Origin: Sandaracinaceae bacterium
GTDB lineage: Bacteria; Myxococcota_A; Polyangia; Polyangiales; Sandaracinaceae
NCBI GenBank assembly: GCA_044220955.1
Contig: JBGAQA010000003.1
Coordinates: 1-64,000, forward strand
Direction: 5' to 3'
DNA: 64,000 nt
Part shown: positions 15,041 to 21,402 of the stretch, one piece after another
Layout of the letters: each line of letters starts with the position of its first letter
Numbering within the stretch: the first letter of the stretch is position 1
Notes under the pieces: generated by a model
What the model was told of the DNA's origin: nothing
Databases searched by the model: none
The model's input: the letters and a program-made list of their open reading frames with translations, nothing else
Made by a program: the position numbers and the translations under genes

Positions 15041-15580
15041 ATGCGTCACGTCGCGCTCCTCGTCGGCCTCCTCCTCACCGCATGCAGCGGCGTCACGGTG
15101 CACACGGGCCGCGAGGCGCCCGCGTCACGGGGCCCAACGCTCGAGCAGCTCGCGTGGCTGCTCGGCGACTGGCAGACGGACCCCGACGAGCACGGCTGCG
15201 TCTACCGCGAGCGGTGGCGGCGCGACTCGGACATGCTCTTCGTCGGCCGCGCCAAGGCGCGCTGCGGCGCGACCGCCGCACACGAGCCCTTCCACGAGGA
15301 GCTCCGCCTCGAGGCCGAGGCGCGCGGGCTCGTCTACGTCGCCGTGCCCTCGGGACAGACCCGCACCGAGTTCGACGTCACGTCCGGCGACGAGGGCGGC
15401 TTCGTGAGCGAGAACCCCGACCACGACTTCCCGACGCGCATCGAGTACCGCCGCACGGACGCCGGGATCGAGGCGACGGTCTCGGGCCCCGGCCGTTCGT
15501 TCACGCTCTCGATGCACCCGGCTGCGCCCGAGGCCGCCGGGGAGGGCCCGGTGAGCGCACCCGACGCCGGCGGCCGCTGA
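15041..15580 (+). CDS. DUF6265-like beta-barrel lipoprotein
   Basis: Lipobox LTAC; LAWLLGDW..ERW and ENPDHDFPTRIEY motifs. Confidence 0.75.
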   Translation: MRHVALLVGLLLTACSGVTVHTGREAPASRGPTLEQLAWLLGDWQTDPDEHGCVYRERWRRDSDMLFVGRAKARCGATAAHEPFHEELRLEAEARGLVYVAVPSGQTRTEFDVTSGDEGGFVSENPDHDFPTRIEYRRTDAGIEATVSGPGRSFTLSMHPAAPEAAGEGPVSAPDAGGR

Positions 15581-15601: not shown

Positions 15602-16750
15602 TCACACGGCGATCCCCTCGATGACGCTCACGAGCGCGTGCTCGCTCGATCGACCGAGCGTGAACCCCGTCGCCGCGAGCAGGTCCCCGTACTCGGCGCG
15701 GCTCCGCTCTCGGCCGTCGTCGCACACCATCATCATGTGAACGTCGGCCATGGGCCCAGGGCCCTGCACGTCGTCGTGCTCCGTCAGGGTCTCGAGGATG
15801 ATCACCTTGGCGCCGGGCTTGGCGGCGGCGCGCACGCGCCCGAGGATCGTCTTGCACGCGTCGTCGCCCCAGTCGTGCAGGATGTTCTTGAGCACGTAGC
15901 CATCCGCCCCCGTGGGCACGTGGTCGAAGAACGATCCGGTCTCCAGCGTCGCGCGAGAGAGGACCCCGCGCGCCTCGAGGAGCTCGCGCCCGAGGTCGAC
16001 GACCCCCGCGGCGTCGTAGAGCACGCCGCGCAGCCTCGGGAAGCGGAGCAGCAGCTCGGAGAGCAGAGTCCCTCGCCCTCCACCGACGTCGCAGACCGTG
16101 CCGAGCTCGGCCCATGGGTAGAGCCGCGCGATGATCGGCGCGGTCATGACCGTCATGCCCATCATCGCGGTCGCGAAGAGCTCGCGCTCGCCTGCGTGTG
16201 CGTCGAACCACTCCCAGACGTTCATCCCGTGCTCGAGCGCGAAGCCGTTCTTCCCCGTCTTCAGGGTGTCGTCGAAGGCGTTCCACGCGGCCACGTTCGA
16301 CTGCGTGCCGAAGTACTCCACGAATTCGCGCATCGCGCCGGGGCGGCCGGAGCGGAGCCCTTCCGAGCGGAAGTTGTTCGTGAAGCGCCCCTGCGAATCG
16401 AGCGCGAAGACCCCGATCGTCGCGAGCGCGCGCATCATGCGATGCATCGCGTCCGGGCTCTGGCCCGTCTTCTCCGCGATCGCCGCGCCGTCGAGCGGGC
16501 GCTCGGCGAGCAGATCGGCGATGCGCAGACGCGCGGCCGCGGCGAGCATCTTCGTCGTCGCGATTCCGGTCACGAGCTCCCAGAGCACGAGATCGACCGG
16601 CGCGAGGCGGTCCGTGGTGGCCTTCAGCCCGCGCCGCGTCGCGATCGCGGCGCGCACGGCCGCGTCCGGCGGCGCCGTGCCGCTCGGCGTGGGACCGAGC
16701 TTGATCGGCGTGGGATCCGACGTCGGCTGCTTGTAGGTGCGCGCGGGCAT
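15602..16750 (-). CDS. SAM-dependent O-methyltransferase (dimerisation + Methyltransf_2 domains)
   Basis: DVGGGRG, GSFFD, LKNILHDWGD, GRERS; N-terminal winged-helix dimerisation region. Confidence 0.92.
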   Translation of the reverse strand: MPARTYKQPTSDPTPIKLGPTPSGTAPPDAAVRAAIATRRGLKATTDRLAPVDLVLWELVTGIATTKMLAAAARLRIADLLAERPLDGAAIAEKTGQSPDAMHRMMRALATIGVFALDSQGRFTNNFRSEGLRSGRPGAMREFVEYFGTQSNVAAWNAFDDTLKTGKNGFALEHGMNVWEWFDAHAGERELFATAMMGMTVMTAPIIARLYPWAELGTVCDVGGGRGTLLSELLLRFPRLRGVLYDAAGVVDLGRELLEARGVLSRATLETGSFFDHVPTGADGYVLKNILHDWGDDACKTILGRVRAAAKPGAKVIILETLTEHDDVQGPGPMADVHMMMVCDDGRERSRAEYGDLLAATGFTLGRSSEHALVSVIEGIAV

Positions 16751-16801: not shown

Positions 16802-17821
16802 ATGCGTCGGACCCGGCTCGCCGCCCTGTCCATCGCGACACTCGTCGCGGCGGCCTGCGATCGCCCGGCAGATCCCGCCTGGATCGCCGAGCGACTCGCC
16901 GAGGCACGCGAGCGCGACACCGCGGCGCGGGCGGCGCACGCCAGCGACGACGAGCGTACGCGGTGGACGCTCGAGGTGGTCGGACCCGACGGCACGAGCG
17001 AGGTGCTCCCGTTCGCCGCGCTCTCGAGCTTGCCCCGCACGGAGGTGACGACGACCGAGCCCGACGAGGCGGCGCACCACGACGTGGTGCGCTTCGCCGG
17101 CGTGCGCATCTCCGACCTCGTCGGCCGTGCGGCGGCGGGCGAGCACGCCCCCGACGTCACGCTCCTCGCGTCCGACGGGTTCCGCGCGACGCTGCAGATG
17201 GAGGACGTGAGGCTCTTCCCCATCATCCTCGCGACCGACGCGAACGGCGCCCCGCTCGGACGCGATCATGGCGGCCCGCTCTACTCGGTCTTCCCGACCA
17301 TGCAGTTCCCCGAGCTCGGCACGCGCTACACGTCGAGCGCCTGGGTGTTCTACGTCACGCACGTGATCGTGGGGACCGCGCCGCCGAGCGTGCGCGTCGG
17401 GGATCGCGTGGTCACGGCCGCCGAGCTCGAGGCGCTGCCGACCACCTCGCTCTCGGCCGTGGTCGGCTACCGGACGGGCTGGCCCAGCGAGCCGGTGCGT
17501 GTGCACGGCGTGTTGCTCCGCGACCTGCTCGCGCTGGCCGGGGCCACCCTCGGAGACGGCGACCGCGTCCGCGTGATGTCGCGCGCGCCCGTGACGCGCG
17601 GCGAGGGCCGGCCGACGCTGCTCTCCGCCGACGACGTGCGGAGCGCAGACGTGATCCTCGCGCTCCGCTACGGCGAGAGCCGCGAGCCGATCCCCTCCCG
17701 GCTCGGCGGACCGCTCGCGCTCGCGTTCCCGACGAGCGTCGCCGCCCACCTCACCGACCACGACTGGCTGACCTTCGTGGATGCCCTGAGCGTCGTCCCG
17801 GCTGCCACGGAGGTGCCGTGA
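16802..17821 (+). CDS. Lipoprotein with two tandem Cys-less molybdopterin-oxidoreductase (SUOX/PruR-like) domains
   Basis: Lipobox AAAC; repeats FAGVRISDL..SDGF..IILA..GGPLYSVFP and VHGVLLRDLL..VILA..GGPLALAFP; no Cys after the lipobox. Confidence 0.75.
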   Translation: MRRTRLAALSIATLVAAACDRPADPAWIAERLAEARERDTAARAAHASDDERTRWTLEVVGPDGTSEVLPFAALSSLPRTEVTTTEPDEAAHHDVVRFAGVRISDLVGRAAAGEHAPDVTLLASDGFRATLQMEDVRLFPIILATDANGAPLGRDHGGPLYSVFPTMQFPELGTRYTSSAWVFYVTHVIVGTAPPSVRVGDRVVTAAELEALPTTSLSAVVGYRTGWPSEPVRVHGVLLRDLLALAGATLGDGDRVRVMSRAPVTRGEGRPTLLSADDVRSADVILALRYGESREPIPSRLGGPLALAFPTSVAAHLTDHDWLTFVDALSVVPAATEVP

Positions 17822-19326
17822 GCGACGATCGCGTCTCGTCGCTGCTCGAGTCGGGGCCGAAGGGGCGCGTGCGCTTTCCGATCTTCCTGCAGCTCGTGCT
17901 GACGGTCACCGGCGTGGTCACGCTCGTGCTGAGCGTCATCATCGTGCTCTGGGTGCTCGCACAGACGCGGACGGTGCGCCGCGAGATCGAGGGCCAGGCG
18001 ACGACGCTGGCGACGGCGATGGCCGACGCGTGGGGCAACGAGCTGACCGACGAGAACTGGAACCAGATCCGGTACCAGATCCGCTCGGCGATGGAGCGCA
18101 ATCACGACTTCGTCTACTTCGTGGTGAGTGACTCGCGCCGCGGCGACCGCGTCGTCGCCGCGGGTCCGGACGACGTGATCGGGAGCTACGTGCCCGACCT
18201 GGTGCCCGCCGAGGTCACCGAAGCGGCGCTCGCCGCGGAGGCCGAGCCGGTCATGCGCGAGACGATCCTCCTGCGGGAGGTCGTGCTCGACGGACAGACG
18301 CGCGCACGGGCGGGTACGCCCGTGGTCGAGGCCGCGGCGGCGCTGAACCTCGGCGGGCATCGCGTGGGCGTCCTCCGGGTCGGCGTGTCCCTGCGTCGCG
18401 TGGAGCAGGCGCGCCGCACGATCTTGCGCGATGCGCTCTCGGCCGCGCTGGTCTGCATGCTCCTCGGGATCGTGGTGGCGTGGCTGGTCGCGCGCCAGTT
18501 CACCGCGCCCATTCGCGCGCTCGAGCAGAGCGTCTCGCGCATGGCCGGCGGGGATCTCGCACACCGTTCGAGCGCGAGCTCCCGGAGCGAGATCGGGGCG
18601 CTCGGAGCGGCCGTCAACCGCATGGCCGTGGCGCTCGAGAAGAGCTTCGCCCGCCTGCGCGGCACGCTCGCGTCTTTCGAGCGCTTCGTGCCGCGCAAGT
18701 TCCTCCAGGTGATCGCGCCCGCGGGGATCGAGAACATCCAGGTCGGCGTGCGCGCCGAGCACACGATCACGATCCTCTTCTCGGACATCCGGGGCTACAC
18801 GTCGCTCAGCGAGAGCAGCACGCCGGAGCAGATGTTCCAGCTGCTCAACGAGTACCTCCCCGAGATGGGCGCGGTGATCGACGCGAACGGCGGCTTCATC
18901 GACAAGTACATCGGTGACGCGATCATGGCGCTCTTCGACGATCCGCACGCCGACGGAGCGCTCCGCGCGGCGGCGGCCATGCGCGTTCGGCTCGCGGCCC
19001 TGAACGCCCGCCGGATCGCCCGCGGCGAGAAGCCCTTCGAGATCGGCATCGGCCTGCACCGCGGCCAGGTCATCATGGGCACGGTCGGGTTCTCGTCGAA
19101 GATCGAGTCGACCGTCATCGGTGACGCCGTGAACTGCGCCTCGCGTGTCGAGGGGCTCACCAAGCAGTACGGCGTTCACGTGCTCGCGACCGGGGCGGTC
19201 GTCGACGCGCTCGAGCAGCCCGCGGAGTTCACGCTCCGCGTCGTCGACGCCGCCGCGAAGATCCGCGGCAAGGACGAGCCCATCCAGCTCTACACGATCG
19301 ACGCCGAGAGCGCCGACGGGCGCTGA
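17818..19326 (+). CDS. Membrane class III adenylate cyclase (TM-periplasmic sensor-TM-HAMP-cyclase)
   Basis: FSDIRGYT, DKYIGDAIM, GIGLHRG, TVIGDAVNCASRVE; HAMP PIRALE..SEIGALGAAVNRM; GTGA overlap with the upstream stop. Confidence 0.93.
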   Translation: MSDDRVSSLLESGPKGRVRFPIFLQLVLTVTGVVTLVLSVIIVLWVLAQTRTVRREIEGQATTLATAMADAWGNELTDENWNQIRYQIRSAMERNHDFVYFVVSDSRRGDRVVAAGPDDVIGSYVPDLVPAEVTEAALAAEAEPVMRETILLREVVLDGQTRARAGTPVVEAAAALNLGGHRVGVLRVGVSLRRVEQARRTILRDALSAALVCMLLGIVVAWLVARQFTAPIRALEQSVSRMAGGDLAHRSSASSRSEIGALGAAVNRMAVALEKSFARLRGTLASFERFVPRKFLQVIAPAGIENIQVGVRAEHTITILFSDIRGYTSLSESSTPEQMFQLLNEYLPEMGAVIDANGGFIDKYIGDAIMALFDDPHADGALRAAAAMRVRLAALNARRIARGEKPFEIGIGLHRGQVIMGTVGFSSKIESTVIGDAVNCASRVEGLTKQYGVHVLATGAVVDALEQPAEFTLRVVDAAAKIRGKDEPIQLYTIDAESADGR

Positions 19327-19418: not shown

Positions 19419-20000
19419 TCAGAAGTCGTCCTCGCCCTGCTGGTGGGCGCGGAGGCGACCGACGACGGTGAGGCCGCCCGTCATCGACGTGATCAGCTCC
19501 TGGCGGCTCTCGACGATCACCGGACCGACGCCCATGCAGTACGTCGTGCGCACGTGCAGACCCGCCTCACCGCCTTCTTCCAGGACGGCGACGCAGTTCT
19601 CGTAGTGTCCGTCGGTCACGTCCACGGTCTGGGTCACGGACTCGATGCGGGCCGTGCGGCCGTTGGTGCTGGGCCACTCTTGCCCGACCACGATCGGATC
19701 GCGAAGCAGCCAGGTCTGCGACGCGGGCTGCCAGATGCCGTCCTCGCGCAGCTCGTACGCGTGCACCTCACCTCCGTCGGCCGCGATCCCGACGGTGCTC
19801 CCCTGCACGTCCACGACCCGCGTGATCCCGAGCGAGCTCATGCCCGTGCCGGTGTCGATGTCGTAGGTCCAGATGTAGTGGGCCGCCATCGGGTAGAGGC
19901 CGCGCGCCGTCGGTGGCTCGGCATGCGGTGTGGTGCCGCCGGTCCCGGGACAGCCGGCGAGCGTCATGGCGAAGAACAGGACGACGAAGAGCGTGCGCAT
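19419..20000 (-). CDS. Hypothetical lipoprotein
   Basis: MRTLFVVLFFAMTLAGC lipobox; beta-rich body with ENCVAV..TYCMGVGPV. Confidence 0.8.
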   Translation of the reverse strand: MRTLFVVLFFAMTLAGCPGTGGTTPHAEPPTARGLYPMAAHYIWTYDIDTGTGMSSLGITRVVDVQGSTVGIAADGGEVHAYELREDGIWQPASQTWLLRDPIVVGQEWPSTNGRTARIESVTQTVDVTDGHYENCVAVLEEGGEAGLHVRTTYCMGVGPVIVESRQELITSMTGGLTVVGRLRAHQQGEDDF

Positions 20001-20007
20001 CGAGGCC

Positions 20008-21402
20008 TCAATCTGGTTGGAAGACACGCTCCTGCGTGTAGTCGTCGTCGTAGTACTGCCACGCGCGGTCGAAGGTGATCGCGCCGAAGGTGTTGACGGC
20101 GATCGCGAAGAGCAGCGCAGCATGGAAGCCGCCACGCAGCGGGCGGCCACCGAGCGCGAGCAGGGTGATCAGCACGATCATGTAGTCGAGCGAGAAGCGG
20201 TAGCCGAACTGGACCCAACCGCTGTTCTGGTACATCAGGTCGCTCAGACAGACGAGCGCCGCGGGCAGGTAGAGGCCGACCATCCGCGCATCGACTCGCT
20301 TCTTCGGGAAGAAGAGCAGGAGCAGCGGCGGCGTGGTGACCCAGAGCGCCAGTCCGTGCCGGCTGACGATCAGGTGTGGCTCGTTCGCGGTGAGCCAGGG
20401 CAGCGACGCGCAGAAGATCGCGAGGTTCTTCGAGAGGTAGTGGTAGTTGACCAGGCCCCAGCGCGCGATGCGCGCGTGCCAGGCGATGATCAGGTAGCGG
20501 TGTCCGAACTCGAACGGATGGCCCCAGCGCGCGTGGTTCATCCACATCGCGACGCCACCGATCACCAGGATCGGCGCCGCGAAGGGCGCGAGCTTCTTCA
20601 CGACGTCGCGCCACGCCACGCCGGCCAGGAACGCGCGCAGACGCCGGGCGGCGCCCGCCTCGTCGCCCGAAGGGATCTCGGGCGCGCTCGCGACGCGGCA
20701 CGTTCGCAGGAGCTCGATCAGGAACACGAGCGCCAGGAGCGACATCGTGGGCCGCGTCATGAAGATGCAGCCCAGCACGAGCCCGGCGAGCGCCGGGCGC
20801 CGCCCCTCGAGCGCGAAGAGCAGGTAGAGCGGCAAGAGGGTGCTCGCGACGACGTGCGCCGCGAACCACACCGTCCCCTGCACCGCGACGAAGAAGAACA
20901 CCGTGCCGAAGGCGAACATCGCGGTCAGCGTCAGGTTCTCGCGTGGCGTGCGCCCGCTCGCGCCGCGCTCGGACAGATCACGCAGCAGCACGTAGAGAAA
21001 GGCTGGCGCGAGCCCCGCACAGAGCGCCCAGAAGAGCGCGTCGCGCACGGCCGTCCCCCAGATCGCCACCAGCGGCAGCACGAGCAGGGCCGGGAAGGGC
21101 GGGAACGACACGTACCAGTGCTGCGTGTCGGTCGTGTGGGTGAACGCCGACTGCGGGCAGACGTCGTCGATCGACGCGTCGTAGCAGGCCCAGTCGTTGG
21201 TCCCGGGCGGGCGGTTGTCGATGACGCCCAGCTGGCCGGAGAGCCAGCTGGCCGCGAGATGCACGAAGTGGTTGTCCGGGGTCGGCCCCTCGACGCGCGT
21301 GCCGAGCATCGCCACGTACACCGCCGCCGCGAGGACGTAGATGGTGAGTGGCGCCTTGATGCGCGCCCAGCGCGGCGAGCCCGACATGAGGGCCGGAACC
21401 AT
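20008..21402 (-). CDS. Polytopic membrane protein, possibly a GT-C fold glycosyltransferase
   Basis: About 10 TM helices, extracytoplasmic loop after TM1, YVSFPPFPALL, TRP, NHARWGHPFEFG. Start 21402 or 21387. The ORF-track extension to 21720 looks non-coding. Confidence 0.7.
   Translation of the reverse strand: MVPALMSGSPRWARIKAPLTIYVLAAAVYVAMLGTRVEGPTPDNHFVHLAASWLSGQLGVIDNRPPGTNDWACYDASIDDVCPQSAFTHTTDTQHWYVSFPPFPALLVLPLVAIWGTAVRDALFWALCAGLAPAFLYVLLRDLSERGASGRTPRENLTLTAMFAFGTVFFFVAVQGTVWFAAHVVASTLLPLYLLFALEGRRPALAGLVLGCIFMTRPTMSLLALVFLIELLRTCRVASAPEIPSGDEAGAARRLRAFLAGVAWRDVVKKLAPFAAPILVIGGVAMWMNHARWGHPFEFGHRYLIIAWHARIARWGLVNYHYLSKNLAIFCASLPWLTANEPHLIVSRHGLALWVTTPPLLLLFFPKKRVDARMVGLYLPAALVCLSDLMYQNSGWVQFGYRFSLDYMIVLITLLALGGRPLRGGFHAALLFAIAVNTFGAITFDRAWQYYDDDYTQERVFQPD

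Follow-up and report, generated by a model that had tools for sequence, protein, structure and literature searches.

Two overlapping genes in a 64,000-nucleotide stretch of DNA from a Sandaracinaceae bacterium (positions 1 to 64,000 of contig JBGAQA010000003.1, assembly GCA_044220955.1; the whole stretch, with a GC content of 70-74%, is called the window here) encode a lipoprotein with two PruR-like repeats of the SUOX fold and a membrane-bound class III adenylate cyclase, and their products very probably work together as a receptor and the enzyme that it regulates. The original prediction, made from the DNA letters, had placed the pair at 16802-19326, with a GTGA overlap between the genes, and this arrangement was borne out: the open reading frames lie at 16802-17821 and 17818-19326 on the plus strand, the start of the cyclase gene overlapping the stop of the lipoprotein gene in a GTGA at 17818-17821. 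It had further proposed that the lipoprotein is a pterin receptor of the kind known from PruR, duplicated, lipid-anchored and wired to cyclic AMP (cAMP) in place of cyclic di-GMP (c-di-GMP). We lean, on balance, towards this full model with a pterin as the ligand, with less assurance than we attach to the partnership itself.

Fold and ring pocket of the lipoprotein

The lipoprotein gene (16802-17821; all features of the pair lie on the plus strand) encodes 339 residues. Its signal peptide (residues 1-19, 16802-16858), read from the sequence, carries no twin-arginine consensus and ends in the lipobox Cys19, the sole cysteine of the window protein; the lipobox cysteine is present in 127 of the 131 rows of the family alignment, the rows of which were not dereplicated, while the other four rows have gaps there. 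Pfam PF00174 (Oxidored_molyb) matches the protein in two stretches, and no other gene of the source genome, which is 88% complete (this holds for every search of that genome below), has such a match. Repeat 1 spans residues 53-192 (16958-17377) and repeat 2 residues 193-333 (17378-17800); they recognise each other by BLASTP (E=1e-4) and by profile-profile comparison (98.8% over 121 columns), and they share the motifs GVRISDL/GVLLRDL, ILA, GGPLYSVFP/GGPLALAFP and W181/W322. Pfam, BLASTP and profile comparison thus agree with the prediction of two SUOX repeats bearing these motifs, with no cysteine outside the lipobox. The repeats are nevertheless unequal, since the second lacks the D-x-F/Y ring motif. 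No NCBIfam model came near its cut-off for the lipoprotein.

A PDB sequence search with the lipoprotein ranked four PruR sequences first, and a 37-row profile matched PruR with E values from 1e-19 to 1e-12, compared with 9e-5 for the best enzyme. In the AlphaFold2 model of the protein, which has a confidence score (pLDDT) of 92, residues 50-192 superimposed on PruR with Z scores of 18.5-18.8 and a root-mean-square deviation (rmsd) of 2.0-2.2 Å over 133-136 residues, whereas sulfite oxidases and other SUOX enzymes ranked below it (Z at most 17.4). The fold search suggested by the original prediction therefore put PruR first for repeat 1, in Foldseek/VIA, and repeat 2 was compared by profile only. 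Repeat 2 resembles PruR-like single domains (hhalign, 98.6%), and its profile positions 229-323 also match sulfite oxidase 6y0k (hmmsearch, E=9e-5). W227 and W322 are present in all 131 rows, W227 aligning with the tryptophan of the PruR PW motif and standing in a GW-P context, and of the ring triad only the tryptophan is kept, so that this repeat reads as a degenerate copy. A search of ESM Atlas features with repeat 2 gave matches at 0.90 that include an Oxidored_molyb cluster rich in cyanobacteria, which serves as a lead only. Two cysteines in repeat 2 (positions ~282 and ~313) co-occur in 55 of the 131 rows, probably as a disulfide, and are not found in the window protein.

The pterin site of PruR is formed by N102, Y104 and W160, and a PW motif replaces the molybdenum-ligand cysteine of the enzymes (PMC11194511). 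The corresponding residues of repeat 1 are D125, F127 and W181, and the pocket is nearly invariant, with D/N125 in 131, F/Y127 in 130 and W181 in 126 of the 131 rows. Asp and Phe variants at the ring positions are also described among PruR homologs in PMC13259868. At the position of the molybdenum cysteine, or of W70 in PruR, repeat 1 has Asp88, and cysteine occurs at positions 86-91 in none of the 131 rows. The 28 weaker matches from the same phylum that served as a control carry FHCVT at this site in 14 cases, the others being spurious (1) or unparsed (13).

These data bear on whether the lipoprotein could be a molybdenum oxidoreductase, with the cyclase sensing its product. Its Pfam family, the NCBI name "molybdopterin-dependent oxidoreductase" given to cyanobacterial homologs, and the molybdenum cofactor genes of the source genome would fit such an enzyme. 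Periplasmic SUOX molybdoenzymes are as a rule exported by the twin-arginine route, however, and the window protein is not among the 7 of 90 proteins with even a loose twin-arginine pattern; together with the absent ligand cysteine in every row and the precedence of PruR over the enzymes in the fold searches, this makes a catalytic role very improbable. By sequence and model comparison the lipoprotein is a PruR-like SUOX-fold protein devoid of the molybdenum-ligand cysteine, and it is likely to be non-catalytic. Our data also suggest that a few hundred annotations as molybdopterin-dependent oxidoreductase (201 matches) are wrong. In a domain tree of 75 rows and only 146 columns, the repeat-1 sequences grouped into a separate clade (98/90) among cysteine-less proteins, with a second tandem family (82/84) as its neighbour. 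The same tree set repeat 2, on a long branch, beside the cysteine-type enzymes, a position that we do not trust.

Linkage and predicted docking of the lipoprotein and the cyclase

The cyclase gene (17818-19326) encodes 502 residues with two hydrophobic segments, in windows that begin near residues 18-36 and 203-212, which enclose an extracytoplasmic sensor domain (residues 45-205, 17950-18432), followed by a HAMP domain (residues 223-274, 18484-18639; Pfam) and a class III catalytic domain (Pfam Guanylate_cyc, residues 314-488, 18757-19281). The catalytic residues are the two metal-binding aspartates D323 and D367, the transition-state residues N439 and R443, and K363 and T432, the lysine and threonine that select ATP, found here in DKYIGD and STVIGD; of the 37 rows, 36 have each of these residues and one is incomplete. 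K363 and T432 also align with the lysine and threonine of the photoactivated adenylyl cyclase 5x4t. All parts of the sensor-HAMP-cyclase layout named in the original prediction, with two membrane helices and both ATP motifs, are therefore present.

A cluster look-up led to Swiss-Prot P43524 (CYAA_ANACY, Anabaena cylindrica; BAA09511.1). The window cyclase is 44% identical to this protein over 485 residues (E=1e-152), and P43524 searched against the source genome found the window cyclase best, with 399 bits compared with 153 for the next protein. Judged by these matches, the window cyclase is a full-length ortholog of CYAA_ANACY, and the 1995 paper on the cloning of the Anabaena cylindrica cyclase is said to include E. 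coli cya complementation. For CYAA_ANACY, neither a partner protein nor an input signal was reported in the literature searched. In six related loci (L074:2442-2481 and five others), an off-frame reading of the lipoprotein-terminal WVTFVEEL agrees with the 12 residues that open the P43524 entry, and it follows that a lipoprotein gene of this kind very probably lies upstream of the Anabaena gene too. The 490-residue NCBI form of P43524 starts at an ATGA overlap, and the Swiss-Prot start (502 residues) may lie 12 codons too early.

The sensor differs from that of the PruR partner DcpA. The model of residues 45-205 (pLDDT 90, 6 strands) adopts a single-Cache fold, with WalK as its best match (Z 15.8, rmsd 2.2, 138 aligned residues), then CitA (Z 14.8), and DcuS also matched; a DcpA-like bundle was absent from the fold matches listed. 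The WX7E motif occurs in 2 of 37 rows, neither of them that of the window protein. Pfam gave sub-threshold matches to sCache_3_2 in 11 and to dCache_1 in 10 of the 37 rows, and the Cache profile had no real match among PDB sequences.

The pairing of the two genes was conserved in each set of genomes examined. A GTDB scan found 17 loci, 4 of them cyanobacterial and 13 from Sandaracinaceae, Polyangiales, Kofleriaceae, Deltaproteobacteria or Proteobacteria, and the cyclase gene lies directly downstream in 16 of the 17, one of these cut by a contig end. The full-length lipoprotein is encoded in 25 of 401 cyanobacterial genomes, and in 21 of these the cyclase gene shares its strand and lies no more than 1.5 kb away. 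A Cache profile search of the same 401 genomes returned exactly those 25, one copy each, a coincidence that carries less weight than it might because the profile itself includes 21 of the 25 carriers. Within its own class the lipoprotein occurs in 8 of 251 genomes, with an adjacent cyclase in all 7 others, and the full-length form is found in 2 of 401 genomes of its own phylum; related genomes are not independent in any of these linkage counts (16/17, 21/25 and 7/7 adjacent). The pair is encoded on a Leptolyngbya plasmid, Leptolyngbya NIES-3755 being among its carriers, and the lipoprotein is present in the strains Nostoc sp. PCC 7524 and Calothrix sp. PCC 7507. The pair is thus present in myxobacteria and in filamentous cyanobacteria, with a patchy distribution.

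Modelling of the lipoprotein (residues 20-335) with the Cache domain, from 37 paired rows each, predicted a complex with a score of 0.77 (runs of 0.78, 0.77 and 0.75), compared with 0.02 for the best of three controls; the score mark is reached by 116 of 157 solved pairs and by 2 of 215 mismatched pairs, a calibration that holds only roughly for self-made alignments such as ours. Contacts agreed by at least 77% between the runs, and the pLDDT of either partner was at least 81. The helix at residues 25-45 (16874-16936) is the main predicted contact of the Cache domain. This N-terminal helix is specific to the family, is present in the AlphaFold2 model of the lipoprotein alone and has E34 and A35 conserved in at least 90%. 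In the best contacts, residues 28-46 meet Cache residues 121-134 and 150-153. The Cache domain is also touched by the repeat-1 pocket at its rim (residues 123-125, 127, 153-154 and 183-184, including two of the three pocket residues). Five of the 12 invariant Cache residues (W81, P126, V129, L152 and G166) lie in the predicted interface. Recall of a solved complex by the model is unlikely, because no complex of PruR with a partner was among the fold matches listed and because the alignment with PruR does not extend to the helix. The modelling, which the original prediction had suggested for the periplasmic domain of the cyclase, therefore supports docking of the lipoprotein on the Cache domain of the cyclase.

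Could the two genes be inherited and expressed together while their proteins never meet, the lipoprotein having a separate job? The complex score is a measure of model confidence, and the genes stand apart in 4 of the 25 cyanobacterial genomes, two pairs flanking a RecQ-like gene (named by eye) and two lying on different contigs. Both genes are retained in all four of these cases, however, and neither was found alone in the 401 cyanobacterial genomes; the gap between 0.77 and 0.02, and the sister system described next, also point to contact, so that we regard this explanation as improbable.

A search of representatives found a second tandem family, of which eight proteins were aligned, together with many cysteine-less proteins of one or several repeats. 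The gene of one of the sister tandem proteins, the cysteine-less SUOX protein P0208, is followed after 9 bases by a histidine kinase gene. In a small search the sensor of this kinase matched our Cache profile with E=7e-13, unlike the partner proteins encoded with two PruR-type genes on plasmids. The case is a single example, since it is one sequence seen in two contigs. It suggests from sequence comparison that a tandem protein and a Cache domain may form a portable module with either a kinase or a cyclase as its output. The P0208 locus is L093:299-2938 (also L094), and P0208 has no N-terminal helix.

Candidate ligand, proposed signal path and significance

We propose that the N-terminal helix (residues 28-46) clamps the lipid-anchored lipoprotein onto the Cache domain of the adjacent cyclase, as the complex model predicts, and that the rim of the repeat-1 pocket (123-127, 153-154 and 183-184) touches the same domain. 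A pterin-type ring would occupy the pocket of repeat 1, and its presence would shift the Cache domain together with the HAMP domain and the second membrane helix and in this way set the activity of the cyclase dimer, with repeat 2 acting as a structural element or a secondary site. The effect may be one of damping, a sign that we favour slightly because of the analogy with PruR-DcpA and because the Anabaena gene is reportedly active in E. coli.

The lipoprotein could instead serve as a ligand-free accessory subunit of the cyclase, either a stabiliser or a constitutive brake, while the signal is received at the Cache domain itself or through a disulfide. The single Cache domains of CitA and DcuS bind ligands directly, most of the high-confidence contacts come from the helix and not from the pocket, and the paired cysteines of repeat 2 could provide a disulfide. 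The window protein lacks that pair, however, and the best match of the Cache domain is WalK, for whose matched domain we know of no small ligand. The residues of the repeat-1 pocket moreover belong to the best-conserved positions in both phyla, several of them lying at the predicted interface, and for these reasons we hold a ligand-free subunit to be unlikely.

A somewhat stronger contender, though still an unlikely one, keeps the complex and the relay and replaces the free pterin by molybdopterin or its cofactor, or by some other flat heterocycle, for instance a flavin or a lumazine breakdown product. The ring triad is common to cofactor-binding enzymes, the PW loop is unlike that of PruR, and the source genome showed no PruA-type reductase, neither by the TGx3RxG motif nor by a PRK09135 match over the cut-off. 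On the other side, the short PruR domain gives the best fit to the model. Positions 161 (after GGP) and 180 (before the terminal tryptophan), which we take to be the cofactor-phosphate ligand sites of SUOX enzymes, are mostly aromatic or small residues in the lipoprotein family, at odds with bound molybdopterin. Against a cofactor as ligand stand also moaA and moeA, whose products the source genome encodes, and the fact that Pfam recognised no transporter gene among the immediate neighbours of the pair in the window.

The source genome has matches to FolE, FolB, PTPS and Pterin_4a. It also encodes, at C17:11713-13205, a fusion of FolB with another domain, which by eye resembles a cupin, and after it a short-chain dehydrogenase/reductase with the general TGx3GxG motif; the two are a possible alternative pterin-modifying pair. 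PruA is not universal, as V. cholerae has PruR pairs and no PruA, and cyanobacteria make pterin glycosides at high level, in roles described as unclear (both PMC13259868). Since the source genome shows neither an aromatic amino acid hydroxylase nor PRK09135 nor the TGx3RxG motif, and given the V. cholerae and cyanobacterial precedents, the ligand may be of foreign origin, may be in another state of reduction or may be something other than a pterin.

Besides the cautions attached above to the linkage counts and the complex score, several observations weigh against the proposed model. The aromatic amino acid hydroxylase and the TGx3RxG motif of pteridine reductases, for which we found no match in the source genome, are two of them. 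The PW tryptophan is missing from repeat 1, where the window protein reads P87-D88, only one of 131 rows has a tryptophan and the loop varies freely. The D-G-Y motif is also present in the cysteine-type SUOX control proteins, and the triad therefore marks a preserved ring pocket and not specificity for a free pterin. The clade of repeat 1 stands apart from the PruR-like clade in the tree. Interface conservation, computed without a correction for burial, is modest on the Cache side, where 186 of 10,000 random sets were as high, and weak on the lipoprotein side (828-920 of 10,000). Finally, a thylakoid membrane location is reported for the Anabaena cyclase, and its sensor would then face the lumen. 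The idea of a PruR-like receptor wired to cAMP thus keeps its fold, its gene pairing, its ATP-type cyclase and a predicted docking, whereas the missing PW motif of repeat 1, the unspecific triad and the failure to find a PruA motif in the source genome do not support a pterin as its ligand.

A wider reading, which we offer tentatively as possible and short of probable, is that the pair represents a second, independently wired pterin-sensing module, in which a tandem PruR-fold lipoprotein clamped on a dedicated Cache domain sets cAMP, with a histidine kinase as the output in the sister lineage. Pterin signalling has so far been established in a single architecture, that of PruR with a DcpA-type sensor, in Proteobacteria and with c-di-GMP or kinase output, according to PMC11194511 and PMC13259868. 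If the wider reading is true, such signalling would extend to two more phyla, to a different sensor fold and to cAMP, which governs motility and mat formation in cyanobacteria (PMC4284465). The module would be the input that is still missing for the Anabaena cylindrica cyclase and would give the pterin-rich cyanobacteria a receptor for released pterins, while myxobacteria without a PruA-type reductase would listen to the pterins of other cells. The window cyclase is an ortholog of a Swiss-Prot enzyme for which no reported input was found, and the carriers of the lipoprotein or of the pair include cultured strains.

Neighbouring genes and comparison with known systems

The genes around the pair were rejected as parts of the system, as they are not common to the loci beyond close relatives. 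Upstream of the pair lie a DUF6265 gene (15041-15580, plus strand; found in 2 of 17 related loci) and a divergent O-methyltransferase gene (15602-16750, minus strand; 1 of 17). Downstream, open reading frames at 19419-19988 and 20008-21402, both on the minus strand, have no Pfam match and are syntenic in 4 of 17 related loci; their products are probably a lipoprotein and a multi-pass membrane protein, respectively. UvrD is encoded near the pair in 8 of the 17 loci, all of them named Sandaracinaceae, Sandaracinus or Deltaproteobacteria. A scan for promoters and terminators found one weak site, within the cyclase gene, and no terminators. Five public sequencing runs covered no more than small parts of the stretch, and four of them gave short, low-depth contigs, two RNA runs contributing for example 219 and 201 exact bases, which is too little to show transcription.

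In cyanobacteria the operon is divergent to putA in 16 of 25 loci (L059, L063, L065, L067-L075, L077, L079, L080 and L082; L067 named by Pfam and the rest by N-terminal sequence), and it adjoins an AhpC/TSA-family gene in four (L076, L078, L081 and L083). Among the related cysteine-less proteins, P0099, P0108, P0113 and P0117 are exported or lipoprotein-like and contain from 2 to ~10 Oxidored_molyb repeats, and P0093, a single assembled sequence, has a Ser/Thr kinase domain fused to a tandem PruR-like domain. On the Pantoea ananatis plasmid NZ_CP099537.1 (L085:3429-5149) a single cysteine-less PruR-like gene overlaps a histidine kinase gene, and this pair adjoins conjugation genes.

No description of the lipoprotein-cyclase pair was found in the literature searched, which left most subscription journals uncovered; the supplementary network of PMC13259868 may include the family, and three PNAS supplements gave no matches to "adenylate" or to the names of the host groups. 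The claim that no characterised example exists accordingly holds for the pair within that literature, but not for the cyclase half, which has long been annotated as P43524. CYAA_ANACY and the window cyclase have the Cache-HAMP-cyclase layout and the catalytic motifs in common.

The SUOX molybdoenzymes (MsrP/YedY, 1xdq; SorA, 2blf; SoxC, 2xts; sulfite oxidase, 1sox) have the same fold as the lipoprotein (Z 12-17) and share its D-G-Y/F and GGP motifs. In contrast to them, the lipoprotein is duplicated and lacks the molybdenum-ligand cysteine, the long cysteine hairpin and the twin-arginine signal. In NspS-MbaA and TorT-TorS a periplasmic binder likewise relays a ligand to a co-encoded membrane enzyme, although NspS and TorT are solute-binding proteins, not SUOX-fold proteins, and the outputs are c-di-GMP or a phosphorelay (PMC11194511).

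The nearest system, as described in PMC11194511 and PMC13259868, is PruR-DcpA or PruR-DTB of Proteobacteria (A. tumefaciens Atu3496; PDB 7kos, 7kou, 7rkb, 7kp2 and 7kom). As in PruR-DcpA, an exported cysteine-less SUOX-fold protein is encoded directly upstream of a signalling enzyme with two membrane helices, repeat 1 retains the ring-pocket residues, and the module also occurs with histidine kinase output. The differences are nevertheless considerable. The lipoprotein has two repeats (~340 residues, compared with ~170 in PruR), a conserved lipobox cysteine and an additional N-terminal docking helix, and its first repeat is without the PW motif. Where DcpA senses through a four-helix bundle with WX7E, the cyclase has a single Cache domain of alpha/beta fold, and its output is a HAMP-coupled class III cyclase making cAMP in place of GGDEF/EAL domains or a histidine kinase. 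The hosts here are myxobacteria and cyanobacteria and not Proteobacteria. As it differs in the PW motif, the number of repeats, WX7E, the sensor fold and the output, the lipoprotein-cyclase pair is not a member of the PruR-DcpA system.

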